Shown here in pieces: positions 4,143 to 61,147 of a stretch of DNA of 64,000 bases (position 1 is the stretch's first letter; each line of letters begins with the position of its first letter). The DNA is from an uncultured Hormoscilla sp. Lineage in GTDB: Bacteria > Cyanobacteriota > Cyanobacteriia > Cyanobacteriales > Desertifilaceae. The notes below the pieces were generated by a model that was given only the letters and a program-made list of their open reading frames with translations, had not been told where the DNA came from and ran no database searches. The stretch lies in contig OZ001293.3 of the NCBI GenBank assembly GCA_963921275.4, positions 3,072,001-3,136,000 on the forward strand, in the 5' to 3' direction. The position numbers and the translations under genes were made by a program.

Positions 4143-4595
4143 GACCCGGACAGCAAGCACGAAGCGTGCTTACTACAAACGGCAAGCACGCTTCGTGCTT
4201 ACTACAAACGATTTGTATTCCAGATCGGCTAAATTCCTGTTGGCCTCAAATGTAAATAATTTGACCATTTTCGATGAACGATTACCTGACGATCGCCGCA
4301 CCTCTGGTTGCCATGCGCCTTCAGAGGCTGTTTTAAAAGTCTCTAAGTGTGAAAATAGTGGCGAGCGCTCCTTCTAAGTAGATACCATACAATTAGCGAT
4401 TAGCCATAAGCCAACCATATGATGAGAGAAGATGTAGGCTCTAATTAGTCTTTGAGGGAGTCGATGGCGAGCGCTCATGGAGCCAAGTCAAAATGAGTAA
4501 AAATAACTATTGACAGGAGGAGAAGAGAAGATGTAGGCTAGAAAAAGCCAAGTTCGGAGTAGTGGGTGGCCAGCAGGAAAATTGGGGACTCGGAA

Positions 4596-5412
<817 letters not shown>

Positions 5413-5621
5413 TAATTTGTCAAAATTACGTAGCGTATAGGTAAGAAACGGGGAACGGAGGGCGCTCCAGGGGCGATCGCGATAAGGTTGATCCTGTTGC
5501 ATTTTAATACTGTCAGATCCTTCCGATTTGGCGGGGGGCGATCTGGACCCTCAGGGGATCTAGCAGAGCCTTTTTTCCGTGATGCCTGATTTTTAGTGCT
5601 CCCTCAACGCTCTCTAGCGCC

Positions 5622-5850
5622 CTACATCGGTTGTGGCTTGGCTGTATAGTTCCATTGTGGGAGAATATTGTCAAAGACAATTTGCATATTTTCCTTAAAA
5701 CTTGAGCCAACTTTCATTCCTGTTTGATAAACCTTATCAATTACGATTGTAAATACCTTTAATCCTGTCTTTGTTGTCCTTGTGGCTATCAAATTTTTGA
5801 CCGTTTCCACCTTGTCGAATATTACCCCCTCACATGTCTGACATGGGGAA
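5622..5850 (-). mobile_element. ISAzo13-family transposase C-terminal fragment
   Basis: CEGVIFDKVETVK..TTKTGLKV..YQTGMKV..LPQWNY. Confidence 0.75.
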
Positions 5851-5854
5851 ACAA

Positions 5855-6390
5855 CCGATACTGATACTGTCCCAGCACTAGCAACCAGACCCGACCAAAG
5901 TAAGTCAATCTTCATCGCCAAGCAGCGTTCTCAAGATAAACCCCTGATTCTCATGGGAGATACTGTTAACACGTTACTTTCATTCTGTCAAGGGACGCCC
6001 GCAGAAATGGCAGTTTGGCAGCAGGTGGCGGAAAAATACTGGCCCGGTGCTTTAACCTTGGTGCTACCAGCGTCGGAACGGGTACACAGGGCCATGCACC
6101 AAAAGATCCAACCTCGATCGGGCTGAGGATCCCCAAGCACCCGATCGCCCGGCAAATTCTGGCCCAAACTGGCCCTCTAGCCACAACCAGTGCTAACCGG
6201 TCGGGAAGACCATCCCTGCTGTCAATGGCAGAAATAGCAGCAGAGTTTCCCCAAGTACTGACTCTATCCTATAGGAGATAAGCCAACTGTGCCACCAGCA
6301 ACCGAAGTACCCTCCACTGTGGCAAAATGGAACGGTTTGGGGTGGGAAATCCTGCGACAGGGAGCGGTCAAAGTGCTACCCTTACCCTAA
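5855..6390 (+). pseudogene. Sua5/YrdC (threonylcarbamoyl-AMP synthase) family, 5'-truncated and frameshifted
   Basis: TDTVPALA..KQRSQDKPLILM, YWPGALTLVL, GPLATTSANRSG, PSTVAKW across several frames. Confidence 0.8.
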
Positions 6391-6413
6391 AACGATTAGC
6401 GAAGGGCATTTTT

Positions 6414-7325
6414 ATGGGCTGGAGCAACTTGGTTTATTTCCTAGTCGGACTGGGGCTAGGCTTAGGAAGTAGGAGTATATGGCAGAGCATCCGCAGCCAG
6501 TTGGGTCTTGGCCTTACTGCCAGCGTTGAGATGGAAACTTGCGTAGAGCAACTTATACAGACTCAGTTAGCCTACCAGATGGCCTCGGAAATGAGCAAAT
6601 TTAAGGAAGGGTTTCTGGCCCGGTGTCCCACGAACTGCGAGCGCCCCTCAATGGGATCGTCAGTATACACCAGCTGATTACCGAAGGTTTATGCCAATCA
6701 AAGTCCGAAGAGCAGGAATTTCTTGAAGAAGCTCACCACCGCACCCGAAAGCTGCAAATCGTTCATCGACGAAATGGTGCTAGTCGCCAAAACCGAGCAT
6801 GGCAGGGAAACACAAGAAATTCAGCCCATCGATCTGGCTAGTATATTCGGGGAAGTCTATAAATTGACCCACAACCAGGCCGCTAATAGGAACCTGCAGC
6901 TGCTCGTAGTCAACCCAGAGCAGCATATTTACGTGCTAGCAGACCAGCGCCGAGTTTGTGACAGGTACTGGTGCATCTAGTAGATAGCACGATACTGCTG
7001 CGCAGTCGCTGCGCGAACGGCCAGATGCAAGAGGGTAGTATTCATTTGTGGAGCGAACCAGAATCCTCTGCTGGGGTAGTCCGCATCTTACTGGAGGATA
7101 GTCGTCCCGCCAGTGCCTGGAGTGACGAGCGTGAATTTGTTGACTTCACAGCAGGGGAAAGTTGACGCCCAACTAGATCCTCCTTCCCCCGGACTGACAT
7201 TGATGGCAGATAAAATCCTCCTAGAACTGATGCAGTCCAGTCTAGAAGTCCTGGCAGTCCCCGATAGGCAGTCGGAGGTGAGTCGCATTCAATGCACTCT
7301 TCCCCTGGCGATGATAGATCCTTAG
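6414..7325 (+). pseudogene. Membrane-anchored HisKA/HATPase-like protein, multiple frameshifts
   Basis: SHELRAPLNGI H-box; pieces 6327-6677, 6623-6841, 6723-6980, 6971-7165, 7113-7325. Confidence 0.75.
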
Positions 7326-7340
7326 CAGTCCGATATTGTA

Positions 7341-7808
7341 TTATTGAGAAACTGCTGTTGTGGCTGGAGTTTTGGGGATTTCTATGGCCTGATTGTACAG
7401 TATTATCGTAGTAGTGGAATTGCGCTGGAAACCGATGCGCTCGTAAAACTGTTGTTGATGGGTGGTCATCAGGTATACGCGCTCAACCCGACTCATCTTG
7501 GGGTGGCTCAAAACTGTCTCCACCAGCTTGCGCCCCAGTCCCGCACCTTGGTATTCTGGGTGCATGACTACATCCCAGATAGTGGCCCGGTATACTCCGT
7601 CGGAGGTAGCTCTGGCAAAGCCAATCAGGCGATCGCCATCCCAAACGGTAATCACCGGACAGCTGTTGGAGATCGCCTCCTGCAAATCGTCTGGCCGCCG
7701 CCCTTGGGCCCAAAAAGCCCCCAGATCGAACAGGTCCACCAGTTGAGTCAGGTCGAGCCCAGAAATATCGGCACAAAATTTAATATGGCTGCAATCCATT
7801 GCTGTCAT
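7341..7808 (-). CDS. GNAT-family acetyltransferase
   Basis: IGFARATSDG, WDVVMHPEYQGAGLGRKL, FYERIGF. Confidence 0.9.
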   Translation of the reverse strand: MTAMDCSHIKFCADISGLDLTQLVDLFDLGAFWAQGRRPDDLQEAISNSCPVITVWDGDRLIGFARATSDGVYRATIWDVVMHPEYQGAGLGRKLVETVLSHPKMSRVERVYLMTTHQQQFYERIGFQRNSTTTIILYNQAIEIPKTPATTAVSQ

Positions 7809-7936
7809 ACCAAGTGGGATTTGATATGTGATATTTTAGGTGGGAGTGCCACCCCAGTTTCGGTAAGGTTTGATCGCAGATGCCCTGGCGCTGCTCGTTT
7901 AATTGCCTCTGAGACGATAACAGTAGATACGATCCT

Positions 7937-9320
7937 ATGCCTTCTAGACAAAATCTCGATCCCGTGCAGACCAGGCCCTTGCCAAAGTACCTGGTCTTGC
8001 TGTTTTGTCTGAGCCTGTCATGGAGTCTCGCCTTCGCGATCGCCCCTCGGACAGTAGCATTAGATCCAGTTCCCGAACGCTATCAGCTAGGACTGGAACT
8101 GTACCTAAAAAATTGTGGCACTTGCCATAGGGCCCTGCCACCAGCGGTGATGCCCAGGGAAACCTGGCAACAGCTACTACAAGATGAGCAACATTATGGA
8201 GTCGGTGCGATTCGTTCTAGCCTAACGTGGTCAAACACGGAACGCTAGCCCGGTTTCATTAGCCGGGAACTCTGACCGCATGGGGGTTAAATTCCCCTCC
8301 CCCCAGGTACGGGGGTGACACCGGTCCTCGGTGCTACGAAGCGACATCATCGTGGTGCTAAGCGAGGACTCAAATGTAGGATAACTGGCAGCCTAAGCCG
8401 GTGACGCCGCTAGGAAAGATATCCAAGGTTAGAGCAGGCAAACATGTGCAAGCCTCGTTATAAGGAACCAGCGAAATAAGGCTATATGCGCTGGCCTAAA
8501 AAGGAAATGGTAGCTAGTATTAGTTTTAGACTCTGGCTAATATAGTACTCAAATAGCTCCCGGGGTATAGTGTGGACCTAAAGGTATCGCGAAATGTTGT
8601 TAGGGAACGAAGTAACCTCTCGTGTGCTGTCCATCAGGACAAGTTAGATGTTAAGCGCAAGCCACGGGGGGAGGGATGGCCCAAGAAGCGAATGCCCGGG
8701 GTAATTCCTGGGATAACATCTACAGTAATGTAGATGATGCTGGGTAGCCAGCGCTGACGTGGGTCGGTGATACTAGGAAGCTGCTGGAATGAGTAATCCT
8801 AAAAAGCCACGGAACTAATCCGAAACGCAAGTGGAGGATAAGGTATGGATAACTGGTAAAACTGACTTGAAAATGGTGATACTAACGGTTATCAGAACAA
8901 CCACTCGCTAAACCAGGAAAGGGAAGAAAAGACAGGCGGCAAGGGCTAACGGAAGTAATTCCTATTAAGTCTACCTATGAAAAGGGCCTAGTACCCAGTA
9001 GCCGGATGCGGTGAAAATCGCAAGTCCGGTTCCTCAAGGGAGGGTCGGGAAGCGATTCCCGGCTCGACCCCATCCGACTGCAACTCCCGATCGACCCATC
9101 CCGCCTGCTAATATGGCAATACCTGCAATTTGCCTCTCGTCCCCTAGCATCAGAGGACGAGACTCCTTATAGACTGAGGAACTCTCGTTATTTTCAAGCA
9201 CTTCATCCCCGAGTCAAGTTCACCTCGCCCATTACCATCAGCAGTTGTCTACAATGTCATCCAGATGCTATGAAGTATGACTTCCGTTCCCTCTCCCCCG
9301 AATGGCTTGATGCCCAATAA
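7937..9320 (+). CDS. Dihaem cytochrome c family protein split by a group II intron (exons 7937-8204 + 9076-9320; 170 aa spliced)
   Basis: Signal/TM segment, CGTCH in exon 1, CLQCH in exon 2; removing 8205-9075 gives an open frame ..HYGVGLQLPIDPSRLLIWQYL.. Confidence 0.88.
8205..9075 (+). mobile_element. ORF-less group II (IIB-like) intron, type A, 871 nt
   Basis: 5' GTGCGATTCG; domain V AGCCGGATGCGGTGAAAATCGCAAGTCCGGTT (~9000-9031); domain VI hairpin; no long ORF; near-identical copy at 18001-18871. Confidence 0.93.
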
Positions 9321-9412
9321 GCTAGCATTACGGGCAGGCGATCCGCCCGCCCTACGCAACAAAAGTGGTAAGATAAAAAATAGTCTGCCCTTAAATGTAT
9401 TGATATGCTGCC

Positions 9413-12223
9413 ATGCTGAAGAAATTGCTCGGCGATCCCAACGAACGCAAACTGAATAAGTATAAGCCTTTCGTTAAAGAAGTCAACCTGTATGAGGAGG
9501 AGATAAGGCCCCTATCAGATGAGAATTTGATCGCTAAGACGGCTCAATTTAAACAGCGGCTGTCGAAAGCATCCTCAGATAATGAGTTGAAGGAGATGCT
9601 GGACGAGCTGTTACCCGAAGCATTTGCGGTGGTCCGGGAAGCAGGACGCCGGGTGTTGGGAATGCGACATTTTGATGTCCAGCTGTTGGGCGGGATGGTG
9701 CTCCACGACAGACAGATAGCTGAGATGAAGACCGGCGAGGGAAAAACCCTGGTGGCTACCCTGCCATCCTACCTGAATGCCTTGACCGGAAAGGGAGTTC
9801 ATGTAATCACGGTTAATGACTACCTGGCACGCCGGGACGCGGAATGGATGGGACAGGTTCACCGGTTCCTGGGATTATCGGTGGGTCTGATTCAACAGGG
9901 GATGGGACCGGCAGAACGCCAGAAGAACTATGGTTGCGATATAACTTACGCTACCAACAGCGAGGTGGGGTTCGATTACTTGCGGGATAATATGGCTTCT
10001 GGAATGGCGGAGGTGGTGCAACGGCCGTTCAATTTCTGCATAATTGATGAAGTAGATTCGGTATTGGTAGATGAAGCTCGCACGCCGCTGATTATATCAG
10101 GTCAGGTAGACAGACCGAGCGAAAAGTATATCCAAGCAGCAGATGTGGCCAGGGCCCTGAACAAGGAAAACCATTATGAACTGGATGAAAAGGCCCGCAA
10201 TGTTCTGTTGACAGATGAAGGGTATATTGCAGCAGAGGAGTTATTAGGGGTAACAGACCTGTTTGACCCGAAAGACCCTTGGGCCCATTTTGTCTTCAAT
10301 GGGATCAAGGCGAAGGAACTGTTTATTAAGGATGTTAACTATATTGTCCGCAATGATGAAATAGTGATCGTAGATGAGTTTACGGGACGGGTGATGCCCG
10401 GACGCCGCTGGTCGGATGGCCTGCATCAGGCGATCGAGGCGAAGGAACGGGTAGAAATTCAACCGGAAACTCAGACTTTAGCGACAATAACATATCAAAA
10501 TTTCTTTTTGCTGTACCCGAAACTGTCGGGAATGACGGGGACGGCGAAAACGGAAGAGGCGGAATTTGAAAAGATATATAGTTTGGAAGTGACGGTGGTG
10601 CCCACAAACATGCTGACGGGTCGGCGGGATCTGTCGGATATGGTATATAAGACGAAAGCAGGTAAGTGGCAAGCAGTGGCCCAAAACTGCGCGGAGTTGC
10701 ACCAGCAGGGACGCCCGATTTTGGTCGGTACCACAAGCGTGGAAAAATCGGAGGTAATCTCAAGCTTACTATCCCAGCTGCAAATTTCCCATCAGTTGCT
10801 GAATGCTAAGCCCGAAAATGTGGAACGGGAGTCGGAAATTATTGCCCAAGCAGGACGGAAAGGGGCCCTGACGATCGCCACAAACATGGCCGGACGGGGT
10901 ACGGACATCATACTGGGGGGAAACTGCGACTACATGGCCAGGCTGAAGTTGCGAGAATATTTTATGCCCCGCATTGTCCAACCAGAAGATGAAGATGGTT
11001 TGGGTGCCCTGGGGGTGCCGGGAACTAAACTAAAGGGTAAGAAGGCTCAGGGTTTTGGTCCGGGACAAAAGGTGAAAACATGGAAGGTATCGCCGCAAAT
11101 TTTCCCCACGAAACTGTCCCCAGAAACAGAAAAACGGCTGAAAGAAGCGGTAGACTTCGCAGTCAGGGAGTACGGGGAACGGAGTTTGCCAGAACTCCAG
11201 GCAGAGGATATAGTAGCAGTGGCAGCAGAGTCGGCCCCCACAGATGACCCTGGGATCCAAAAGCTGCGGGATGTTTTCCAAGCCATTCGGAATGAATATA
11301 AGGAATTTACCGATCGCGAACATGAAGATGTGGTGCAACTGGGCGGTCTCTACGTGCTGGGAACGGAACGCCATGACTCGCGCCGGATCGATAATCAATT
11401 GCGGGGTCGCGCTGGTCGTCAGGGAGACCCCGGTTCCACCAGGTTCTTCCTCAGTTTACAGGATAATTTGCTGCGCATATTTGGGGGAGATCGGGTAGCG
11501 GGGATGATGGATATGTTCCGGGTAGAGGAAGATATGCCCATCGAGTCAAAGATGCTCACCCGTTCCCTGGAAGGGGCGCAAAAGAAGGTAGAAACCCACT
11601 ACTACGATATCCGCAAGCAGGTATTTGAGTACGACGAGGTGATGAATAACCAACGTCGGGCGATCTACGCAGAACGGCGTCGGGTACTGGAGGGTCAGGA
11701 CCTGAAGGAACAGGTGATTACATACGCTGAGAAAACGATGGATGAAATCGTTGAGGCTTATGTTAACCCAGAATTGCCCTCGGATGAGTGGGACCTGCCG
11801 AAATTAGTAGGTAAGGTGAAGGAGTTTGTCAATTTACTGGCAGACCTGGAACCGGAACATCTCGAAGACCTCAGCTTTGGGGAAATGAAAACGTTCTTGC
11901 ACGAACAGGTGCGGATCGCCTATGATATGAAGGAGGCTCAGATAGATAAAGTGCAGCCAGGTATGATGCGGCAGGCAGAGCGCTTCTTTATTCTCCAACA
12001 GATCGATACCCTCTGGCGAGAACATTTGCAACAAATGGATGCCCTACGAGAATCAGTAGGTTTGCGCGGTTACGGTCAGAAAGACCCGCTGATAGAATAT
12101 AAGTCGGAAGGCTATGAGTTGTTCCTGGAAATGATGATTTCTATTCGCAGAAATGTGGTATACTCGATGTTCCAGTTCCAACCTCAGCCCCAACCAACTG
12201 TGCAAACGGCAGAAATGGTTTAA
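9413..12223 (+). CDS. secA: Preprotein translocase ATPase SecA
   Basis: [35 protein letters not shown]; 936 aa. Confidence 0.98.
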
Positions 12224-12460: not shown

Positions 12461-14274
<1,814 letters not shown>

Positions 14275-15390: not shown

Positions 15391-16225
<835 letters not shown>

Positions 16226-16593
16226 AAGCGAAGGTTTGCAACGTCGTAAAGCCTATCCAGTGTAATAAGGCTGATACACTGGCCCAAAAAGGGAAAGGAT
16301 ACTGGTCATTGGCGGATGTATACCCGACCAATAAGCACTGACAATAAACCCGGCGTAGAGAACCCGTCTAAGGTTACGACCAATCATCTGTAGGAACGAA
16401 GTAACCCGGTTGTAGCACTCTCCATCACCGGTCGATAGATGGAGTAGCCACCACAGGCGTAACATCTGCTCTCCGGAAGGCAGGACGCAACTGGGGGAGA
16501 TTGAGTGGAGAAGCAAATGCCTGTCTGTAATGGATAGAATAAGCTGACGCCCTCACGGTCTCGTCAATTGTGAAGTTGTAAGTAGTAGTGAAT

Positions 16594-19255
16594 ATGTCAC
16601 GGAACTTAGTCGAAAGACAAGAGTATGAATGGAAGACTGTCGCCTGGCGAAAGCTGGAAAGGATAGTTTTTAAGCTGCAAAAGCGAATTTACAGAGCGGC
16701 ACTGGAAGGTAATAAGCAGAAGGTTCGTAAGCTCCAAGGATTACTAAATAGGTCATGGTCCGCGAAGATGATAGCGGTACGGCAGGTAACACAACAAAAC
16801 CAGGGAAAGAAGACGGCTGGTGTGGATGGTGTGAAAGCACTGACCCCAAAAGAACGTATCGAACTGGTAGGTCAAATTAAAGTTACTCGAAAGGCGAAGG
16901 CAAAAGCCACACGAAGAGTGTGGATACCGAAGCCACGAAGGGAGGAGAAGCGGCCATTAGGAATACCAACGATGCACGACCGCGCACTTCAGGGATTGGT
17001 TAAAGAAGCGCTAGAGCCTGAATGGGAAGCGTATATGGAAGCCAATTCCTACGGGTTTAGACCAGGTAGGGGATGTCATGATGCAGTTGCAGCGATATTC
17101 GCTAGCATCAGTCAAAAATCGAAATGGGTGTTAGATGCGGATATTGCGAAGTGTTTCGACGAAATTGACCATTCCGCGCTCCTAAAGAAATTGAATACTA
17201 CGTCACCAATCCGTAAACAAATACGGGCATGGCTAAAAGCTGGGGTGATGGACCGGGGAAGGATGGAATCCACAGAAGCCGGAACTCCCCAAGGTGGGGT
17301 TATATCTCCATTACTAGCCAATATAGCTTTACATGGGCTGGAAGGGGTAGTAATGGGTCTCGCTCACACAAAAAGAGAGAAGGAGAAGTTAACCGTAGTA
17401 AGATATGCGGATGACTTTGTGGTAATACATAATGACCGGTCGATGATTGAGGAAGCTCAAGGAGTGATTGAGGAGTGGTTGAAGGGAATAGGGCTGGAGC
17501 AAAAAGCCGAGAAAACGAAGATATCCCACACATTGGAAGGAGAGAGCCCTGGATTTGACTTCTTAGGGTTCAATATCCGACAATATAAAGTAGGGAAACA
17601 CAGAAGCGGCAAACTCTGTAACGGAACCCCCCTAGGATTCAAGACCCTAATCAAGCCTAGCGATAAATCCATAAGGAATCATAAAGAGCAGCTATCAGAG
17701 ATAGTTCGCCGCCATAAAGGGGCACCGCAAACGGCCTTAATAGCAAGACTAAACCCGATGATAAGGGGATGGAGCAACTATTATAGGACGGTGGTAAGTA
17801 AAGAAACTTACAGCTCTATGGATAACTACTTATGGAAGTTGTTATGGCGATGGGCAAAGAGAAGACATCCTAACAAAACGGGCAAATGAATTGCTAGTAA
17901 GTACTGGGGTATGACCGGGAAAGACCGGTGGAGGTTCGCTGGCAAGTCTAAAGAAGATGGAGGAATGAAGCTAAACCGATACTCTGAAACTGAAATAATC
18001 GGATGGGGTCGAGCCGAAAATCGCTTCCCGACCCTCCCTTGAGGAACCGGACTTGCGATTTTCACCGCATCCGGCTACTGGGTACTAGGCCCTTTTCATA
18101 GGTAGACTTAATAGGAATTACTTCCGTTAGCCCTTGCCGCCTGTCTTTTCTTCCCTTTCCTGGTTTAGCGAGTGGTTGTTCTGATAACCGTTAGTATCAC
18201 CATTTTCAAGTCAGTTTTACCAGTTATCCATACCTTATCCTCCACTTGCGTTTCGGATTAGTTCCGTGGCTTTTTAGGATTACTCATTCCAGCAGCTTCC
18301 TAGTATCACCGACCCACGTCAGCGCTGGCTACCCAGCATCATCTACATTACTGTAGATGTTATCCCAGGAATTACCCCGGGCATTCGCTTCTTGGGCCAT
18401 CCCTCCCCCCGTGGCTTGCGCTTAACATCTAACTTGTCCTGATGGACAGCACACGAGAGGTTACTTCGTTCCCTAACAACATTTCGCGATACCTTTAGGT
18501 CCACACTATACCCCGGGAGCTATTTGAGTACTATATTAGCCAGAGTCTAAAACTAATACTAGCTACCATTTCCTTTTTAGGCCAGCGCATATAGCCTTAT
18601 TTCGCTGGTTCTTTATAACGAGGCTTGCACATGTTTGCCTGCTCTAACCTTGGATATCTTTCCTAGCGGCGTCACCGGCTTAGGCTGCCAGTTATCCTAC
18701 ATTTGAGTCCTCGCTTAGCACCACGATGATGTCGCTTCGTAGCACCGAGGACCGGTGTCACCCCCGTACCTGGGGGGAGGGGAATTTAACCCCCATGCGG
18801 TCAGAGTTCCCGGCTAATGAAACCGGGCTAGCGTTCCGTGTTTGACCACGTTAGGCTAGAACGAATCGCACAGACACGTAAAGGTTAAGGGGACAGCTAG
18901 CCCGTTTGACGGTAATCTGGTTTATTGGAGCAAAAGACTGAGAAAAAGCCCGGATGTGAGCGCTAGAGTTATCAGACTGCTAAAAGAGCAGGATGGTAAG
19001 TGTGTGCACTGCGGACTGAAATTCAAAGATGGCGACAAATGGGAGGTTGACCATATTCTACCAGTTTCTAAAGGAGGTAAAGACTGGTATACCAACCTAC
19101 AGTTGCTGCATGATTATTGCCATGATGTAAAGTCTGCCAGAGATGGTGACAAAGGCCGTATCCATGACAAGGATGGCGAAACTGAGGAGCCGGATGAGGT
19201 GAAAGTCTCACGTCCGGTTCTGAAGACGAGTCGGCGGGGTGACCCGTTGGCTTAG
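16594..19255 (+). pseudogene. ltrA: Group II intron RT/maturase/HNH protein, inactivated by TGA at 17887-17889 and the insertion 18001-18871
   Basis: KRPLGIPT, SYGFRPGR, GTPQGGVISPLLAN, RYADD, domain X, CVHCG..EVDH..NLQLLHDYCH HNH. Confidence 0.93.
18001..18871 (-). mobile_element. ORF-less group II intron type A, second copy, antisense within the RT ORF
   Basis: Reverse complement of 8205-9075 with only a few substitutions seen; removal gives SETEII|RHVKVKG. Confidence 0.93.
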
Positions 19256-20351
19256 TTTAATAGAAGCTTTCACATGAGTATTAAGATGATCTTGAACGAC
19301 GAGAATTTTCCGCGCTTGAGGAAAACATTCATCAACCAAATACTTCATCTGGTGAGCATAGTCGTAAGAAGTCCGTTGGTCAGGGGTTCTCGTTTCTGAA
19401 ATTAACTGTTTGGAACATTCATCAAAACAAACCAAAGGGTAATCTGAATCATAAGCACGGGTGTACAGGTCTAAAACTTCTTCCATCTGACAGACAAATT
19501 CAGCACTTTCTTGAGGTGGAATTATCCAACATTCCTGAAACCAAGGTTTAATTTCGTTTTTTTTAATACCTGTCGTACCGTTTCATGGGAAAGGCTTTCT
19601 ACATATCCTAAAGCTACCATTTGATCGGCGAGGAGTCGTAAAGTCCAACGACTATACCCAGTCGGTGCTTGGCTGCAAGCTAATGCAATTAAATGAGCTT
19701 CGACTTCTCCATCGATACGCCGTAACTGAGATGAGAGGTGGGGACGGGTGGGTTATTGCTTTTTCTAAACCCTCTTCTACAAACCTTTGTCGAACTCTTT
19801 CAATCGTTCTGGTACTAATGTTCAAAGCTTGGCTAATTTCATTATCTGTCCACCCTCCATCGGTTTGATTAATATCGGCTTTAAGTAAGATGCGAGCATA
19901 ATTAATTTTCCTCGCCGCAGCTTTTCCTGTTGTAGTTAGCTTTTCTAGACTTTGGCGTTCTTCTTCTGTTAGGGAAACTATATATCGTTTGGCTGGCATG
20001 GTTTCTCACTCTTTGTTCTCTTCTCTTCTATTATCTGTCATTATTACTTGATAGACTAATAGCAATCGACAATATTTTTTGCAGACAACCCTTCTTTTTT
20101 TTCAATGCTGACCTGATGTACTATATTATTAAAAGGGAAAGGAGTAATTAGAGGATTGAAATTTATGAGGGGGCAAACCCCCTATTGTTGACAAAAACCG
20201 GGGTGATGGATTGAGGTAATTTTCAGATTAAACTCCAATTGAGAATTCAGGTGTCGGTAATACCCATAGCAGAAATCGTAAAGGTTGATCGCCCCCCGGC
20301 TCTGTGCCTAGAATAAACTTAAATAGACTAAGATGTTAGGAGTATTAAGCG

Positions 20352-24886: not shown

Positions 24887-24921
24887 ACCGACCGTCGTTC
24901 CTTTCAAGAGGTGACCCGGAG

Positions 24922-25567
24922 TCCACGCCTGCTACAAGCATCCCGTATTGCTGCCACCTTCCGGTCCTGACAAGGTTTGGGTGTTGTCACCGCATGAGTC
25001 CAGGTCTTCTCTACCATAACATGGGAATGCCTTTGTTGTGCAACTTTTCCGAAAAATTTGTTGCACATTCTCACCGATGATGGTGGATAATTGTGCAACG
25101 GCAAATTTGTTTATGGGGATTTCTTTATTGGTGACTGGTGCTTCGTCTAAATTCTGCCGGTGCGTTCGACGCGGAAGTTTGATAATCTTTTCGACAACGG
25201 GCCGCTTGGCTTTCAGGCAGAAGCAGCACAAGGGCTGTTGTAATGGAGTCCCGTTCTGGGGTGACTTCGGATCTATCTGTTGCTGGACCGAAGAGCCCAT
25301 CGCGTCTAATGGGGAGACCTGAATTCCACGCCTGCTACAAGCATCCCGTATTGCTGCTACTTCCGTCCTGACAAGGTTTTGGCGTTGTAACCGCATGGGT
25401 TCTCCAGGTCTTCTCCACTATAACATTAGACTGCCTTTGTCGTGCAACTTTTCTGAAAAATTTGTTTGTGGGGATTTTTGTTTGGGTGCTGGCGAGCTAT
25501 TTTTCATATGCCGGTGCTAACTAGCAGGACGTTGGATAATCTTTTCGACAACGGGCCGCTTAGCTTT
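24922..25567. repeat. Diverged direct duplication of the activase 3' end and downstream region (24922-25213 vs 25325-25567)
   Basis: TCCACGCCTGCTACAAGCATCCCGTATTGCTGC and GATAATCTTTTCGACAACGGGCCGCTT each occur twice. Confidence 0.8.
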
Positions 25568-26065: not shown

Positions 26066-26229
26066 ATTAAACTAAGCCAGGGAGTCACCTCCCCGACTCG
26101 TCTTCAGAACCGGACGTGAGACTTTCGCCTCATCCGGCTCCTCAGTAATGCCATCCTTGTCACGGATACGGCTACTACCATCGCTGGCAGTCTTTATATC
26201 ATGGCAGTGTTTGTGCAACAGTTGTAAGT
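26066..26229 (-). mobile_element. 3' remnant (HNH end, DV, DVI) of an RT-type group II intron
   Basis: LQLLHKHCHDIK; GAGCCGGATGAGGCGAAAGTCTCACGTCCGGTTC..GCTTAGTTTAAT. Confidence 0.9.
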
Positions 26230-35292: not shown

Positions 35293-36095
35293 CTTGACAC
35301 GAGTTAAGAAGGGGGACCGCTGGCAGGGTTTATTAGCCCTGACAACTTACAGATGATGGTGGTGAAAGCCCACCCCTCCAGGTGCAGGAGTGACAGCACC
35401 CTCCCCACGGTAGCGATGGCATCAATCCGTGAAGCGGGAAGGAAAGGCGTAATGACTGGCAGCCTAAACTGGTCATCGCTAAGCAAGTAGCTATGATGAG
35501 CATAATGCGAAGATTTGCAACGTCGTTACATGAAACCAGCGGAATAAGGCTAAACACGCTGGCCCAAAAGGGAAAGGATACAGGTCATTGGCGGATTCTG
35601 GACCGACCAATAAGCACTGACAACAAACCCGGCGTATGGAATCCATCTAAGGTTACGACCAATCATCTGTAGGAACGAAGTAAACCGGTTGCAGTACTCT
35701 CCATCACCGGTCGATAGATGGAGTAGCCACCACAGGCGTAACATCTGCTCTCCGGAAGGCAGGTCACAACCGGGAAAGATTGAGTGGAGAAGCAAACGCC
35801 CGTCTGTAATGGATGGGATAAGCTGACGCCCTCACAGTTTCGTCAATTGTAAAGTTGTAAGTAGTAGTGAACATGTCACGGAACTCAGTCGAAAGACAAG
35901 AGTATGAATGGAAGGAGGTGCCCTGGCAAGAGCTGGAGCGCCGAGTCTTTAAGCTACAAAAGCGAATTTACAGAGCGGCACAGGAAGGCAACAAGCAGAA
36001 AGTTCGCAAGCTCCAGGGACTATTGAACAGGTCATGGTCCGCGAAGATGATAGCGGTTTGTCAGGTAACGCAACAGAACCAAGGGAAAAAGACGG
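35268..36095 (+). mobile_element. 5' part of an RT-type group II intron (DI-DIV and RT start), truncated
   Basis: GTGCG at 35268; homologous to 15153-15390 + 16226-16816; RT N-terminus to QGKKT. Confidence 0.9.
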
Positions 36096-36465
36096 TCTTC
36101 CCAATCGATGACAGTTTTCTTGGAGACGTTAAGGTTCGTGCAACTGCATTGAGACCCATCCCTTCACTCCTGGCTTTGAGAACTTGGATAATCCGACTTC
36201 AGGGAGTTCGTAGACCCGCTAAGTGGCCAAGGTTTCACTGTAGTAAATGTCACACGCCTGGCAATGGTGGATGGTGCGCTACCGTTGTGTTGAGTCTCAG
36301 GGAGGGTGGTGAGGCTGTACCTCTTCACTCCCACAACAGGGACAACACTGCGAGAATAGTTCCATAACACACCTCTAATTCCGGAAAAGTCTCAGCCTCT
36401 CTATGATCATCTATAATTCATAGAGGGCAAGTCTTTGGGCTATCCTGTTCAGCGGAACCAGTGCC
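36090..36465 (-). mobile_element. IS1-family left-end fragment
   Basis: Reverse complement of 61198-61576. Confidence 0.9.
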
Positions 36466-47479: not shown

Positions 47480-47689
47480 TGGTCTGGTGTCCTTTGGGGA
47501 TGCTACATAAATCTTAACATGCTTTTTCTCTATTGTAGGAGGTTGCCATATTTTATATATTTGACATTATTTGACTATTCTATTATGTTTAGTGGGCGAT
47601 CGCCCCAATAATAACACACATATCTAGGAATTTGTCAAGGTTCGCCTGGGGAAAGGCAAAGAAGGTGGGCCTTGCCCATCCTACATTTA

Positions 47690-50600
47690 CTATTCTTTTA
47701 CAACTTCTAGTAACCACTCTTTGATCTGGCTTCTTTCTTCTGAAGATGCTCCCGAAATATTCAACAGCTTCGGAAGCAGCGATCGCCTCTGCTCGAAATT
47801 TTTCTTAATTTGAGGATAGGATGGTAATTTGCCATCCACTGCCAGATGAGTTTCTGGCAAGATTCTGACTCGATCTCATATTTCTTGACTGAGAGTCACT
47901 CCAGTAGTATGCCATGCAACACACTGACTCAAACACGAGAGCAAGCATATAGTTTCTCTAGGATCTGTTCTGCGATCGTCTAGCTTATTGAGAACCAGTT
48001 GAGCAGCTTGCTCAACATCTGTTTGCTTAGCTTGCCATCTTTCTGGTTGACCTAGACTTATTAGCCTTCCTAAAGCCCACGCTGCTTTCATTCGTTGTCC
48101 TAAATGTTGACCATTTGCGATCGCATCATATAGAAAATTCAAGGTTGTTGGAGAAGGCTGTCCGCATTTTCCCAGAGAATTGATAAATGATTGGGATCTT
48201 TTTTGATGTTTGTCGGAATTAAATGCTTTGATTATCTCTAAATCAAAACCATGCCAAAACAATTTACCCGGCGTTTGTGCCAGTGTTTCATATAAAGCCT
48301 GTTTTGATTTATTCATTGTTGATAAGTCACTCGTAAGCTTACTCTTAATCCACTGCTGAAACCTTTTTTCCAAATTATTCGCGTCTGTCGAGTCAATTGA
48401 CTGAAAAATTGTGCTTAAAGCCATCGCCGCTAGTAAAGCTTTAGTCTCGCTCAATGAATTAACCATACCACTCATATCTAGCCATCTGAGCAGTTCGCCG
48501 ATAATAGAAAGACGGTTTTTGGCTATAGCCGTTGTTTGTTCAAGTTTTCTGCGTTCTTGATGCACCTCCTTCTTGATAGTATTACTTGTATCACTATTGA
48601 AGCTGTTTGCAAGTGCTTCCCACTGATTAAAATTTACTCGGACTATTTCAGTAATGGGCTTCCCTTTTCTGAGTCTGGGAATAGAGAAAATAGATATTTT
48701 TTTAATCGCCTGACGCGAAACAATAGATGGAGGCTTATCTAAACCCCCAGGAGATGCCACCTCTAGCTTAAATCGCGCCTCACTACTTTCTTTGGGCGTG
48801 AGTGTCAGCAAAAGCCGTTCGTCAAAAGTGTATTCTACTTCAAGATTGAGAGTACAATTGGGTGGTAGGTTGGCGGCATTAATCTCCTCAATAGCAACTT
48901 GACGTAGCCTTTGCAGTGTAGTATTATGGTTGGGCTTCGTTCCCATTCCCACCCAAACCTTAAAGCTCAAATAGCCACTGCTCGTATCGGGTAACTTTAA
49001 TCCTGATAATACAGTTCTGTAGGGGTATTTTTGCCCTTGGGCTACCAGCAAACGTAGGGATCTTTTACCTTCGAGTACCTCAAGATAAATGTTGGTCGGA
49101 TTTACCCTTTGAGTTGACTTGAGTACACCTGCTGCATAGAGCGCTGCTCCCCTGGCTACTGCCCGATCGGGGTTATGACCATCTATGATGGGCACATCTC
49201 CAAATAAGCTTTGCAGGCGATCGCGTACCAGTGGGAAATAAGTCATGCCACCATTTAAGAGCACTGCATCGATTTTCGGGATTTCACCGCTGCTTTGCTT
49301 GGCCTTGAGGATAACTTCCAGCACCGGCACGATAAAGGTGTTAAGTCGATCCGTAAATGGAGGTTCATCGAAAGCCTTTTGCGGATCCAAGGCCGTTCCA
49401 GAGGCTAACGTTAGCTCTTCACAGAGTAGAGGTGAGATAATTTCTGCCATCTGAGATTTACTGATGTAGTATCTGATGGGAAATTGTCCCTCTAACAATA
49501 TTGGTTGAAAGAGGTACTTGAAATTCTCCTTATCCCCGGTACTACCATATTCAGCGCCCCACATCTTCTTAAACTTCTCAGAAAAAATTAGCAGTTCGTA
49601 GGCCAGTTTTTGACCATCGGCTTCAGAGAGATTTTTACATGCAGACCAATTATCTAATATATAATTGGCAATTAGCCGATCTATAGTATCTCCTCCTACC
49701 CGGGTACGGGAGCAAATTGCTAAATCATCAATGATAAAATAGTTAGCCGATTGATCCCACAGTACATTGTGCAGGGTGACATCTAAGGTGCCGCCACCCA
49801 AGTCATAGACCAGGATATTAGATGGCTGCATCACATCGAACAAAGGTGTCAGTTCGCCCTTCTGCACGCGATGCAAGTAATCATATAAAGCCGCTTGAGG
49901 TTCTGGGAGTAATACAACTTCCTCCTCTTGCCATCCCGCTAGCACTGCTGCTTTGCGAGTCGCTTCAATGGCATCTGATTCATAGGAAGCAGGATGCGTT
50001 ATCACTGCACCCTGCACTGAACCATACTTCTGGATTAGCTTATCTCGACAGAAAGCTAGTACCTTAGCAGCCGCTTCTTCAGGAAAAATTGTTCCCTCCG
50101 TCAGATCGTAAGCAAACTGCTTGCCATTGGTCGATCGGCCCATGTCATGTTTCCAGGCCAGAATAGTCTGGTCGCGAAAAGCATAAGCCTGAGCTTTAAC
50201 ATATCCCCCTACCTCTGCTTCAGTTTGTCCCTTGAAGCGGACCGCAGAAGGAATGATATCATTGGTAACTAAACCCTGTTCTTCCCTAATCGAAACACCA
50301 ACTGCTGCCGCAGTCCATTGCTTCGTCATCAGATTGACATTCGCCAGAGCCATGACTGTATTCGTAGTTCCCAAGTCAATCCCTACATAGGTAGGTCGCA
50401 TGACTTCTTTGAGAGGTTCTACATAATCAGCCACCTCCCGCAATCTATTACCGATCCGATCGCCAATGACTAGGGTTTCGATCCCTTTGCGTTTTAACCT
50501 CCCAAACAAACTAGCATAACCATTGTCATTACTGACAACAGCAATCATTGAGACCTGATAATCTGCATTACCAGTAATTTCATCAGCCGTGCGCTCGATC

Positions 50601-50827
50601 AGTCGATCGACCTCTTGAGACACGGGTTTGAGTCCAGGAGTCAACTCAAAGCGATAGCCAAACTCGCGAAAAGCTCCACCATAAGCGGTAAGTACCGACG
50701 GCGTATTAGAGAAAGCCCGGCGAACTACAAGTTGTCCATGTTTCTCATGATGAGTTTGACAAATTCTTTCTATATCAGCCAGTTTCGGCTTGATATTATC
50801 CAAATCAAGTAAGACAGCAATACTCAT
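47690..50827 (-). CDS. NYN (LabA/DUF88) nuclease domain-Hsp70 ATPase-helical domain fusion; TGA at 47876-47878 is followed by 61 more open codons
   Basis: IAVLLDLDN..VD..VSNDNGY..G.ETLVIG..LREVAD; GIDLGTTN, AVITHPA, EPQAA, YDLGGGTLD, NGGMT, AVARGAALYA. Confidence 0.85.
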
Positions 50828-50852
50828 AATTTTCCTCCCTTCTAGTTTCCGC

Positions 50853-52700
50853 TTATTCCGTAACTTCCTTCACCCGAGCTGGCGTAATGACTTCTTCACC
50901 CACACGCCATCCCGGATGAATACAACGTACTACTTTTTTATCTTCTGAGTTAGCAAAAGCGGAGCCCTCAACATAAGCATATGCGGACAACTGCTCGCTC
51001 TGCAATTCAAAAACTTGATCCTCCTGGGCTGGATATCGTGTCACATTAAGTGAATTTAATGCTTGCAACAAATTTTCTAAAGCAATCAAAATGCCCAGAG
51101 AGTCGCTGGGAGACAAAGATAACTCCGAGTTTGACTCTGACATTTTATTTAACCGTTGGTACAGGAGCATAATTTGATCCAAAACTGGTTGATCCTGTTT
51201 CTGAAGAGTTGTGACCAATTGACAAACCGCTGATTGGAGTGCTTGAGAACGAATTTCTGACAGCTCTTTTTTCAATTTTTCATTTTCCTGCTGCAAAAGT
51301 TCCACTTGATTTGTGAGGTTAGCTTCAGTCTCTCCTAACTCCCAAACTAAATTCTGAGCGGCTTCCTCCTTAATTGCCGTCGGCGTGATGTTAAATTATT
51401 TTTGCAGTTGCAATCCTAACTCACCGAGAGACCAAGAAGCCCCCCACTTTAATAATGTTTTATAGCCATGAGATGAGTTAAGCAGATCGCGTACCTTTTG
51501 ATCTACTACTGAGGGAAGTTCCGCTAAAAATAAAAATGTTCTCTCTTGGGAATTTTTGAAATAGTCAATTACCTCACAAAACTCACTCAGCTTAGTCAAA
51601 TCCCGGTTTTCCGAATCCGCAGAATCCGCAAAAGCATATTCTGCTAGTTCGACAAACTTACTCAGATTTGCCTGAAGTTGCTGTCTAACTGTCTGGGGAG
51701 ACTCGCTATACTTTCTTGACAGGTAAAAAAAGAATTTTTCTGCCGTATCGTACTCAACTGAATCAAATTTTCGGTTAAGTATTTCCTTCCAGCTATCCCC
51801 TTCTTTCACAACTCTTACACATTTATGGTGAATAGGAGCAATAGCTTCCTGTCTTTCTTTATACTTCTGACTTTGCGGCACAAATCCCCTGTAGGAATAA
51901 TTGAGAAAATTCACTAATCTTCTCCAAGGAGATGATGCTAACTCCTTCTTCAAGAGTTCCACTTGCCGGTTGGCTTTCGTCTCTCCTAAATCCTGAACTT
52001 TCTTTATCTTGATATCCTTATTCACTTCCTTCTTTTCCTGCTTAACTTCCTTACGCGCGATCCCCAATCTCTCTTCCAGTTGCCATCCGAATTCATTCAG
52101 AAAGGGAGAAGCTCCCCACTGTAATAATGCTTGATATCCTGCCGATGAGTTAAGCATCTCCCGGTCCTTTTGCTCCAGAACGGAGGGAAGTTCTGACAAA
52201 AACCAATATGTTTTCTCTCGCGACTTTTTGAAATAGTCTATTACCTCACCCAACTCACTCAGCTTGGTCAAATCCCGGTTTTCCGAATCTGCCAAAGCAT
52301 ATTCTGCTAGTTCCACAAACTGACTCAGTTTTGCTTGCATTTGCTCTCTAACTTCCTGGGGAGACTCGCTGCTTGACAGGTCATCAAAGAATTTTTTGGC
52401 CGCCTCGTACTCAACTGAATCAAAATTTTGGTTAAGTATTTCCTCCCAGCTATCCCCTTCCTTCACAACTCTTACACATTTATGGTGAATAGGAGCAATA
52501 GCTTCCTGTCTTTCTTGATCTTTCTGGCTTTTCGGCATAATTTTTCTGTAGAAATCATTGAGACAATTCACTAATCTTCCCCAAGGGGATGCTGCCAACT
52601 CTTCTGGGGAAAATCCTGGTTGAACTGGTTTGTTTTTCTCTGGACGTGCCAATGCCTTATTTTCTGATGTCTTTTTCGGTTTTGGTTTTTCTGTCTTCAT
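50853..52700 (-). pseudogene. Protein with two ~205-aa tandem repeats and a C-terminal GrpE-like domain, split by one in-frame TAA (51396-51398)
   Basis: The two ORFs are in the same frame with 30 open codons between them; C-terminus VVRCIHPGWRVGEEVITPARVKE. Confidence 0.75.
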
Positions 52701-52744: not shown

Positions 52745-52828
52745 ATGACTCTCGGAAGGTCATCTGTGACTCCGGGAGGGTCAGATCGTGACTCTCGGAA
52801 GGTCATCTGTGACTCCGGGAGGGTCATT
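52745..52828. repeat. Array of four ~21-bp hairpins (43-bp unit x2)
   Basis: TGACTCTCGGAAGGTCATCTGTGACTCCGGGAGGGTCA x2. Confidence 0.85.
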
Positions 52829-52831
52829 TAA

Positions 52832-53090
52832 CAATAGTCCGGACAGTTTTTGGGTAAACGGCTGAAACTGGCATTCTACCGTTGGTGAGTGAGAGCGTCA
52901 AATAATTCATGACGAATCTCTCTTAAAAGTAGGAATAGTTTAGCTTTTCGTATCCGTTTGGCCACTTGCCGCTCCGAAGATGAAAGTTCAATTGGGGGAT
53001 TCCAGGGGACTGGACGCATATGTCTACTCCTGTTTACATTTTTACAGGTTTTTATATTATACACACATTTTCGGTTTTTTGTCAACCCCC
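52832..53090 (-). mobile_element. IS1182-like transposase N-terminal fragment next to a CAATAGTCCGGACAG end
   Basis: MRPVPWNPPIELS..RIRKAKLFLLLREIRHELFD. Confidence 0.6.
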
Positions 53091-60274: not shown

Positions 60275-61147
60275 GGGCGTGTCATCAATTAAGCCATATT
60301 ACAGCTGCCGCTAGGTAGATGGCACCCAAGAAATTGCGAGCCGTTTTATCGTAGCGTGTCGCCAGAGCCCTGTATTGCTTGAGTTTTTGGAATAGATTTT
60401 CAATTAGATGCCGCCACTTGTACATTTCTTCATCGTATTCTCTGTGTTCTGTGCGGTTACTTTTTGGAGGAATGACAGCCATCCAATCCGCCTCTTTCAG
60501 GCGCTCGAGCACACGTTGTTCCGCATCATAGGCTTTATCTGCAAGCAGCGCGCCAATCTCACCGATTTTATCCAATAGCACGTCAGCGCCTTTCCCGTCG
60601 TGGGCTTGGCCAGGGGTAAGATGAAATCCTGTGGGATTGCCTTGGGCAATCGCAAGTGGCATGAATCTTTGTCGATAGTCCCCCTTTACTACGGCCTATG
60701 GCTTGGGTTTCGCACGTATCTGAGGGTGTTTTTTTTTGCACCCGCACGCTCGTTGATGGGCACGCAGGATGGTGGCATCAATCGCGGCGTATTCGTTATC
60801 GGCGTCTGAGGCCAAGACATCGAATACCTGCTTCCAAACTCCCTTTTCAGACCAACGGGTATGGCGGGTATGAACAACCCGAAAATCCCCAAAACACTCC
60901 GGTAAATCCCGCCAGGGAATGCCAGCACGATATCGATATAACACGGCAGAACACGAATAATCTATTGTTCTTGGCTGTAGCGCCTGGGTCACCCTCTTTA
61001 CCAGGTAAAAGGTGTTCGATCCGTTCCCACTGGTCGTCTCGCAAGCCATAGCGTCTCATATCATGCCCTCTTGATTGTTATTGCTGGATAAGGACTCCAT
61101 ACCGTATCCATCTACTTCTGTCAAGCAATTTGATTGATGACACACCC
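60275..61147 (-). mobile_element. IS5-family element, frameshifted
   Basis: IRs; [50 protein letters not shown]. Confidence 0.92.

Follow-up and report, generated by a model that had tools for sequence, protein, structure and literature searches.

A NYN–Hsp70 fusion protein with a GrpE-like partner, a candidate chaperone-gated conflict or stress module found mostly in cyanobacteria

Hsp70 is the archetypal protein-folding motor, and earlier comparative genomics hinted that conflict systems had taken it up in a helper role beside GTPases or McrBC. The window analysed here, a stretch of 64,000 nt from an uncultured Hormoscilla sp. (contig OZ001293.3, positions 3,072,001 to 3,136,000), carries a two-gene minus-strand operon in which Hsp70 would be the sole NTPase, with a nuclease at its N-terminus and a private exchange factor. 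Gene 2 encodes a NYN domain, an Hsp70 and a long helical tail in one polypeptide, and gene 1 encodes a GrpE-like partner. The family to which the pair belongs extends the range of chaperone-ATPase conflict systems that comparative genomics had predicted before, and would offer a minimal and testable example of a chaperone cycle turned into a signalling switch.

In type III CoCoNuT, a predicted RNA-targeting conflict system, the CnuD or CnuCD proteins have an Hsp70-like nucleotide-binding domain (NBD) and substrate-binding domain (SBD) followed by HEAT-like repeats; their partners are a McrB-type NxD GTPase, CnuC/McrC homologues and HEPN RNases, and the available portions of the paper describe their ATPase motifs as degenerate (Bell et al. 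2024, PMC11090510). To the extent of that description, the Hormoscilla pair shares the succession of Hsp70 NBD, SBD and helical repeats and the association with an RNase effector. Compared by description only, it differs in its invariant ATPase motifs, in the NYN identity of the RNase, in the GrpE-like partner and in the absence of a GTPase or McrC-like neighbour at the window locus. NYN and GrpE are absent from the text of that paper and from the supplements searched. In the available parts of a second account, GTPase-centric GAP1-N2 systems of actinobacteria and firmicutes, in which the GTPase occurs with fibronectin type III, DnaJ or TPR proteins, recruit HSP70 and GrpE genes together, and DO-GTPase systems with tubulin and HSP70 are also described (Kaur et al. 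2020, PMC7159879). As far as this account goes, the likeness lies in the joint use of Hsp70 and its exchange factor GrpE in a predicted NTP-dependent conflict system, whereas at the present locus Hsp70 is the only NTPase and the nuclease is fused to it. No GAP1-N2 GTPase was found among the Pfam-scanned window neighbours (38–62 kb). EACC1-protease modules occur in fusion with lid-less DnaK-like chaperones, for which the authors propose sensing of misfolded proteins or infection stress, according to the accessible portions of a 2025 preprint (PMC12642450). They resemble the present fusion in joining a lid-less DnaK-like domain to a death effector module but, in those portions, theirs is ~50% identical to DnaK and has a protease and a pore-forming effector coupled to it, with no GrpE-like partner reported. 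The available portions of the three sources (PMC7159879, PMC11090510 and PMC12642450) make no mention of the NYN–Hsp70 fusion or of its GrpE-like partner.

Canonical DnaK–GrpE (PDB entries 1dkg and 4ani) has in common with the pair the fold of the NBD and of the β-rich part of the SBD (SBD-β), the catalytic motifs, the long helix, helical bundle and β-domain of the exchange factor, and the placement of the exchange factor gene beside that of an Hsp70. The gene 2 product is about 18–22% identical to DnaK. Unlike DnaK, it has an N-terminal NYN domain and a helical-repeat tail of ~310 residues instead of the lid, and it misses the equivalog cut-offs at least 6-fold; unlike canonical GrpE, the partner carries one or two extra helical domains of ~200 residues, and no dnaJ gene lies in the operon.

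The operon has the following parts, the genes being delimited from open reading frames (ORFs) and their translations.
50853–52700, minus strand: gene 1, GrpE-like partner; a read-through of 615 codons interrupted by one TAA
50828–50852, minus strand: intergenic spacer of 25 nt, with the ribosome-binding site GGGAGG at 50834–50839
47690–50827, minus strand: gene 2, NYN–Hsp70–tail protein; a read-through of 1045 codons with one TGA after codon 983

The terminal TAA of gene 1 occupies 50853–50855 and the start ATG of gene 2 occupies 50825–50827. An earlier note on this DNA, made from the letters alone, had described an AT-rich two-gene operon with a 25-nt gap and a ribosome-binding site, a gene 1 composed of a duplicated helical domain, a coiled coil and a GrpE-like end, and a gene 2 composed of a NYN domain, complete Hsp70 motifs and a helical tail; the coordinates agree with it, the ribosome-binding site reading GGGAGG, and both domain assignments hold in the analyses below. 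The operon has a G+C content of 43.0%, lower than that of the window (47.5%) and of the flanking genes (49.8%), which puts it in the lowest 3% of 5-kb windows.

Gene 2 is divided as follows.
50414–50827, minus strand: NYN (PIN-like) domain, residues 1–138 (Pfam NYN)
49133–50389, minus strand: Hsp70 NBD, residues 147–565 (Pfam HSP70, motifs and Foldseek)
48758–49114, minus strand: Hsp70 SBD-β, residues 572–690 (strands of the model)
48632–48757, minus strand: low-confidence linker after the SBD-β
47693–48631, minus strand: helical-repeat tail in place of the Hsp70 lid, residues 733–1045 of the read-through

The NYN domain matches the Pfam profile PF01936 over positions 2–141 of 145 (E 1.3e-6, 29.4 bits against a cut-off of 24.2). 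A precomputed PF01936 call exists for 31 of the 57 clusters of the family described below, and the Umezakia copy falls just under the cut-off at 23.3 bits. In the AlphaFold model of gene 2, built from 50 relatives (mean predicted local distance difference test (pLDDT) score of 88.4), residues 2–138 form alternating strands and helices with pLDDT mostly of 80–94. Residues D8, D10, N11, D74, S99, N100 and D101 are invariant in all 50 relatives. The metal-binding acidic set of NYN domains includes both Asp residues of the S-x-D-x-D motif, and the last of these, position 103, is Gly here. The earlier note had remarked on this substitution (SNDNGY); it is real, but it is not a private defect of this copy but a clade polymorphism, since the position is Asp in 32 of the 50 relatives and Gly in 18, the closest relative P0002 included. 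The domain might then be catalytically dead or bind nucleic acid only, and the pair would be a specialised chaperone, devoid of a nuclease effector, that remodels an RNA–protein complex or a specific client. We consider this very unlikely: the Gly in 18 of 50 relatives, the modest profile match with its call on 31 of 57 clusters and the lack of significance of the best solved NYN relative speak for it, but D8, D10, N11, D74 and D101 are invariant in 50 of 50 relatives, which would be difficult to account for if the domain neither catalysed nor bound metal, and bona fide hydrolase folds, of the metallo-β-lactamase (MBL) and β-CASP types, occupy the equivalent slot in wider relatives. A single NYN sequence compared with PDB sequences likewise returned no significant relative.

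From residue 148 on, gene 2 matches Pfam HSP70 (PF00012) with an E-value of 8.4e-32. The motifs GIDLGTTNT, VYDLGGGTLD and NGG, together with K226 (the Lys of AWKHDMG) and E309 (the Glu of PEPQAA), are invariant in 50 of 50 relatives, and the phosphate-1, phosphate-2, adenosine, Lys and Glu motifs align to those of the DnaK NBD in PDB entry 5obx. The model resolves into the strand–helix segment of residues 2–138, an actin-like NBD (147–565), a β-rich SBD (572–690), a disordered stretch (695–709) and twelve helices (733–975). Full-length DnaK, BiP and Ssb head the Foldseek matches of this model in the PDB (E 5.5e-29, target TM-score of at most 0.77, 17–22% identity), and both the Foldseek and the phmmer alignments to full-length DnaK run through the SBD. 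The canonical α-helical lid (SBD-α) was not encountered; the 12-helix repeat tail stands in its place and is related to the tails of the Hsp70s from loci L003–L005 (see below), not to the DnaK lid. A HEAT identity for the tail is unproven, as no Pfam family matches it and hhalign to the plasmid HEAT proteins described below gives ~1%; atlas look-ups returned sub-threshold leads only, HEAT families at 0.87–0.90 among them.

The protein is far from the chaperones of general metabolism. Against the NCBIfam DnaK and HscA equivalogs, whose cut-offs range from 620 to 822 bits, gene 2 reaches 109.8 bits for DnaK NF001413 (cut-off 648), 109.1 for TIGR02350 (822) and 104.1 for HscA (708), so that, by its sequence, the pair is not a housekeeping DnaK/GrpE. 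In a tree of 45 Hsp70 rows, a quick tree only, with support given by the SH-like approximate likelihood ratio test (SH-aLRT), the NYN-type Hsp70s form one long-stemmed group (100), the tailed Hsp70s form another (93), and DnaK-like rows lie beyond a 100-supported branch.

Gene 1 consists of three parts.
52044–52700, minus strand: helical N-domain copy 1, residues 1–219, including a basic Lys/Pro-rich N-terminus
51399–52043, minus strand: helical N-domain copy 2, residues 220–434
50856–51395, minus strand: coiled coil and GrpE-like four-helix and β-domain (Pfam GrpE)

The N-domains, of ~215 residues, are a tandem duplication: the DNA copies lie 657–672 nt apart with 77–88% identity, and the proteins are 63% identical over 214 residues (E 4e-89). 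The 415-residue Umezakia partner has a single N-domain, to which each copy aligns at 27–28% identity. The last 179 residues match Pfam GrpE (PF01025; E 1.6e-8, 34.8 bits, cut-off 25.8) and are 36% identical to the C-terminus of the Umezakia partner, which itself scores 42.5 bits; the NCBIfam GrpE equivalogs are missed, with 17 bits against at least 176 required. The AlphaFold model of the intact Umezakia orthologue (pLDDT 85.4) contains a helical N-domain (46–233), a 61-residue helix (238–298), two further helices (304–322 and 330–348) and strands (351–407). The long helix, helical bundle and C-terminal β-domain of the GrpE architecture are thus present in it. Its 11 best matches in the PDB (ranks 1–12 as listed) are GrpE chains, with a probability of 0.97–1.00 and a target TM-score of at most 0.71. 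A search of PDB sequences with the partner profile found no significant relative, the best being uvsY at E 0.29.

For the N-domain, Foldseek on the Umezakia model gave no convincing PDB match, and atlas look-ups were empty, with no detectable relative of known function; a sensor role for this domain is speculation. That the partner binds the Hsp70 NBD and speeds nucleotide release is suggested indirectly, by the adjacency of the genes. A complex prediction of the Umezakia NYN+NBD (residues 1–570) with the partner (residues 41–415), both given as alignments, scored 0.01 against a mark of 0.32, a value that counts neither for nor against the interaction.

A word-indexed protein search with gene 2 in a set of 5.8 billion proteins delimits a family of 57 clusters at E ≤1e-191, the window's own included; the next match reaches only 1.8e-50. 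Most members are 1030–1065 residues long and most are cyanobacterial, those with a name coming from Scytonematopsis, Cyanobacterium, Geminocystis, Nodularia, Scytonema, Umezakia, Sphaerospermopsis, Dolichospermum and Anabaena; a Calditrichia metagenome-assembled genome (MAG) is named too, and a copy is also present in a UBP9 MAG. The closest relative of gene 2, the intact P0002 (1040 residues), is 89% identical over the full read-through. Intact orthologues of gene 1 are P0121 (601 residues, 79% identity, both N-domain copies) and P0122 (615 residues). The close relatives of the partner number 13 and span 384–615 residues, a spread of length that is one of variable predicted N-domain copy number. 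The partner profile retrieved 163 representatives at E ≤1e-3, of which 29 are at ≤1e-30, many of these matching most of the profile; most of the remaining matches cover the C-terminal ~155 positions only, in proteins with other N-termini.

In a scan of genome contigs with generic Hsp70 motifs, true family loci among the 80 listed are those of Umezakia (L001) and of the UBP9 MAG (L002). The earlier note had proposed that the GrpE-like protein is a dedicated partner, and this is what the loci show: the partner lies directly upstream of the NYN–Hsp70 gene in all three loci examined at the DNA level, with gaps of 25 nt in the window, 33 nt in Umezakia and 2 nt in the UBP9 MAG. Adjacency is also suggested for two further Hsp70/partner pairs, found on contigs sized 341399 and 34554 for both members. 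NYN–Hsp70 and its partner are a conserved, patchily distributed cassette. The searched phage records showed DnaK-level similarity only, and the partner had no plasmid match.

Beyond the family, the next-best Hsp70 matches (P0058–P0067, 734–945 residues) have long tails and no NYN domain. At the loci of Epulonipiscioides (L003) and Petrotoga (L004), the order is an MBL-fold hydrolase, a protein of 245–357 residues and a tailed Hsp70; in a Fusobacteriales MAG (L005) the partner and Hsp70 are present, and 371 nt remain upstream of the middle gene before the contig stops. In their GrpE-like part, middle proteins of this type share homology with the cyanobacterial partner (hhalign 96.9%, E 1.5e-10; supported by hidden Markov models (HMMs) at E 4e-13 and 3e-9), and the tails of their Hsp70s match that of gene 2 with a profile probability of 77% (E 2e-5). 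Their gene order equals that of the window operon. Unlike it, they have a separate MBL-fold nuclease gene, adjacent defence genes and partner N-termini that do not align to the cyanobacterial N-domain. The nuclease is thus swapped among relatives, a separate MBL-fold gene replacing the fused NYN domain. The exchange-factor module is likewise joined to other domains: P0184 (771 residues) fuses an MBL-fold hydrolase domain to a GrpE-like C-terminal module, and P0199 (292 residues) fuses an RNA-recognition motif (RRM) to a C-terminus matching the partner profile. Being natural fusions, they serve as Rosetta stones that tie the exchange factor to RNA-directed domains, and effector swapping, which the earlier note had suggested looking for, is seen both in the separate MBL operons and in these proteins. 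A Pfam scan of 54 of the 150 listed partner representatives found GrpE at E ≤1e-3 in 22, of which 8 reach the cut-off.

The neighbours of the MBL-type loci are of a different kind from those of the NYN type. L003 is adjoined by MazF, and L004 by a NERD+UvrD helicase (PADLOC C3a187, E 2e-60); directly downstream of the L005 pair (4255–11582) come a CARF-adenosine deaminase (PADLOC CARF_ADA, E 1e-182), Cas6b and Cas1. The linkage to defence genes that the earlier note had raised therefore applies to the MBL-type relatives, beside MazF, NERD-UvrD and CRISPR-Cas genes, and not to the three NYN-type loci.

A more distant four-gene row, of a β-CASP/RMMBL hydrolase, a hypothetical protein of 476–527 residues, an Hsp70 and a HEAT-repeat protein, was observed on plasmids: at 2642–9499 of L081 (Priestia megaterium plasmid pNCT2_2) and at 1906–9515 of L082 (Klebsiella grimontii plasmid pNY3A). 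The latter adjoins an integrase and an HNH endonuclease, and its Hsp70 is annotated as two ORFs. The row looks like an undescribed mobile system. Its middle proteins are at best weakly GrpE-like, with an hhalign value of 2% for L081 and a weak HMM match for L082 only (E 1.2e-4). A separate family of ~690 residues fuses Hsp70 to a von Willebrand factor A (vWA) domain (PF00092, PF25106; P0070, P0074, P0079, P0084, P0085, P0118 and P0120); it includes Epulopiscium and Defluviitaleaceae entries, and one cluster occurs on 59 contigs.

In the established Hsp70 mechanism, the SBD docks on the NBD and undocks again as ATP is hydrolysed and GrpE drives the release of ADP. We propose that the pair is a mobile conflict or stress-switch module in which this nucleotide cycle gates the fused NYN RNase, a reading that we judge to be about evenly poised between right and wrong; in role, it would most likely serve an RNA-degrading response of the conflict or abortive-infection type or of the acute-stress type. 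Gene 2 would comprise an effector (NYN), a switch (an ATPase-competent NBD coupled to the SBD-β) and the tail that replaces the lid, with the RNase welded to lobe I of the NBD. What the tail binds is most likely the trigger or target, which could be a foreign or misfolded protein, a ribosome or a ribonucleoprotein. A trigger at the SBD or tail would provoke hydrolysis, and the ADP state would license RNA cutting by the NYN domain. The gene 1 product, a putative dedicated exchange factor acting as an NBD-bound coiled-coil dimer, would reset ADP to ATP and so set the duration of the RNase-permissive state; its N-domain occupies the slot taken by MBL or RRM domains in relatives and probably contacts the effector or RNA. 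Computation establishes which domains are present, that catalytic residues and the gene pair are conserved, and that the nuclease is swapped among relatives; binding, nucleotide exchange, RNase activity, gating and the biological role are inferred.

Three observations favour a conflict role: relatives occur in a defence-linked context, the spread is patchy and the operon is low in G+C. The last two, with the variable N-domain copy number of the partner, also lend the pair an accessory character. Several observations weigh against a conflict role. It is weakened because the NYN-type loci have ordinary neighbours: no recognisable defence gene stands beside the window operon, L001 or L002, the Umezakia pair lying among HisF, RuvB, pilus, TPR and P450 genes and the UBP9 pair among subtilases. 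The union of the NYN-type with the MBL-type (tailed) Hsp70s is unsupported in the tree (41). PADLOC-DB v2.0.0 has no model that fits the pieces of gene 2, the core proteins of L003–L005 or either member of the L001 pair. On the protein side, Gly-103 may leave NYN catalysis weakened or absent, the best solved relative found with the NYN profile in PDB sequences (2qip) reaches only E 0.48, and the Foldseek E-values of the Umezakia partner model are 2.9e-3 at best, none being below 1e-3. The segment after the NBD, VNPTNI, is unlike the hydrophobic linker of DnaK. Hsp70 cycles normally require a J-domain protein, and none is encoded in the operon. Finally, both genes of the local copy are broken, by one nonsense codon each.

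The lack of a matching PADLOC model agrees with the earlier note, which did not recognise the architecture as a named system. The only PADLOC match of gene 1 is a chance-level one to Cas8b (E 0.033). No description of a NYN–Hsp70 and GrpE-like pair was found in the full-text literature, a scope outside which subscription journals and bioRxiv supplements fall. One literature match joining NYN and DnaK concerns separate families.

The ordinary surroundings of the NYN type bear also on a role in housekeeping or stress-related RNA quality control, outside immunity. Here Hsp70 would sense unfolded or stalled nascent proteins, the NYN domain would cut the associated mRNA or rRNA and lower the translational load, and GrpE-type exchange would recycle the complex. 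The three NYN-type loci are all surrounded by ordinary metabolic genes, as such a role would have it; the ATPase and the SBD-β appear, from motifs and model, to be fully functional; and RNA-linked domains recur with the GrpE-like module, namely NYN, RRM and a β-CASP domain accompanied by RMMBL, an RNA-specificity domain. It also counts in its favour that LabA and other NYN proteins of cyanobacteria serve in regulation, not in defence. Yet a quality-control function fits poorly with a distribution as sparse as 57 clusters in 5.8 billion proteins with two non-cyanobacterial lineages, with the low G+C content and the variable copy number of the partner N-domain, with the MazF, NERD-UvrD and CRISPR-Cas genes beside the MBL-type relatives, and with the loss of the operon to nonsense codons here. 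We regard it as unlikely.

A bolder form of the conflict reading takes in the MBL and β-CASP relatives as members of one undescribed immune or abortive-infection class, in which a complete Hsp70/exchange-factor cycle, not a STAND, AAA+ or GTPase module, would be both sensor and timer: foreign or unfolded protein would be detected through the SBD and tail, and swappable RNases would be licensed for a period set by GrpE. We put this class forward as a tentative possibility, and lean against it. It would parallel, by analogy, the BiP-controlled RNase signalling of IRE1 in eukaryotes. If the function is as proposed, the family would represent a new sensor logic in bacterial immunity, leading from an unfolded or foreign protein to the destruction of RNA, and a simple bacterial analogue of chaperone-gated RNase signalling; it would also account for hundreds of orphan annotations as 'Hsp70 family protein' and 'GrpE'.

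The nonsense codons of the local copy are located as follows.
51396–51398, minus strand: in-frame TAA, separating the N-domains of gene 1 from its GrpE-like part; the corresponding residue of P0121 is Glu
47876–47878, minus strand: in-frame TGA, removing the last 61 codons of gene 2; P0002 has Cys at this position

The column of the TGA is variable among the 50 relatives (Val 15, Cys 9, Arg 6, and others), so the TGA is a plain nonsense change. A selenocysteine reading was rejected on this variability together with the absence of any Rfam match within the operon. The surroundings are eroded as well: ORFs of at least 100 residues cover 59% of the window (43–56% in most 8-kb blocks), and gene fragments include AMP-binding, Peripla_BP_6, HAD and DDE_3 pieces in addition to transposase pieces, so that pseudogenes appear to be widespread in this genome. 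The two stops are in keeping with such decay, the local copy being a recent pseudogene pair. With a nonsense codon in each gene and a generally eroded chromosome around them, the module has most likely ceased to work in this genome. The stops might instead be harmless, as assembly errors or because the truncated products still function, these being a 983-residue Hsp70 whose tail is 61 residues short and a GrpE-like piece translated anew from an internal GTG at 51305. The sequence past each stop is still highly conserved, with the GrpE-like part nearly identical to P0121 and the post-stop tail still aligning to P0002, and a 150-residue ORF beginning with GTG spans 50853–51305. That adjacent genes each have an independent nonsense codon, that the whole window is eroded (59% ORF cover, fragments, six group II intron matches, transposase pieces) and that no relative is naturally split at either position make harmless stops quite unlikely. 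As a recent pseudogene pair, the local copy matters less, and the interest lies mainly in the family, of which intact orthologues exist.

The chromosome bears a heavy load of group II introns. Six Rfam matches to group II intron domains were observed, at 8997–9073, 13362–13439, 16147–16224, 18003–18079, 19184–19261 and 26066–26143, together with one intact reverse-transcriptase/maturase ORF (16588–17889) and one RVT_N fragment (35867–36367).

Two further features flank the operon.
47666–47678, minus strand: terminator-like hairpin with a T-rich tail, 12 nt past the natural stop of gene 2 (consensus scan only)
52745–53085, minus strand: leader upstream of gene 1, with a tandem repeat, promoter-like hexamers and a 47-residue ORF

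The consensus scan found 8 terminator-like sites in the region against 5.5 expected, that is, no enrichment; promoter-like sites are likewise not enriched (10 found, 10.1 expected). Upstream of gene 1, promoter-like hexamers lie at 52873–52901, and a perfect TTGACA-18-TATAAT occurs at 53056–53085. A tandem repeat with a period of 21 nt (roughly a 42-nt unit, twice) runs from 52746 to ~52830, directly upstream of the gene 1 start. The segment 52876–53303 holds a 73-residue N-terminal fragment of a haloacid dehalogenase (HAD)/β-phosphoglucomutase-type hydrolase, then the TTGACA-18-TATAAT, then the 47-residue ORF, which has no family match. These three elements together may be the scar of the insertion that delivered the operon; the upstream 900 nt have no second copy elsewhere in the window. 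The earlier note had placed insertion sequence (IS) debris beside the operon, which could not be verified, the HAD fragment, the 47-residue ORF and the tandem repeat being what was found upstream. The recognisable IS nearest to the operon is an IS4/IS5-type transposase at 60285–61049, ~7.6 kb away, split into two ORFs (DUF4096 and DDE_Tnp_1).

Within the Pfam-scanned neighbourhood (38–62 kb), the operon is accompanied by genes for an ABC transporter, an FGE-sulfatase and a sulfatase. Farther off, a gene for the bacterial small signal recognition particle (SRP) RNA lies at 24910–25006 (Rfam) and overlaps mechanically called ORFs on the same strand.

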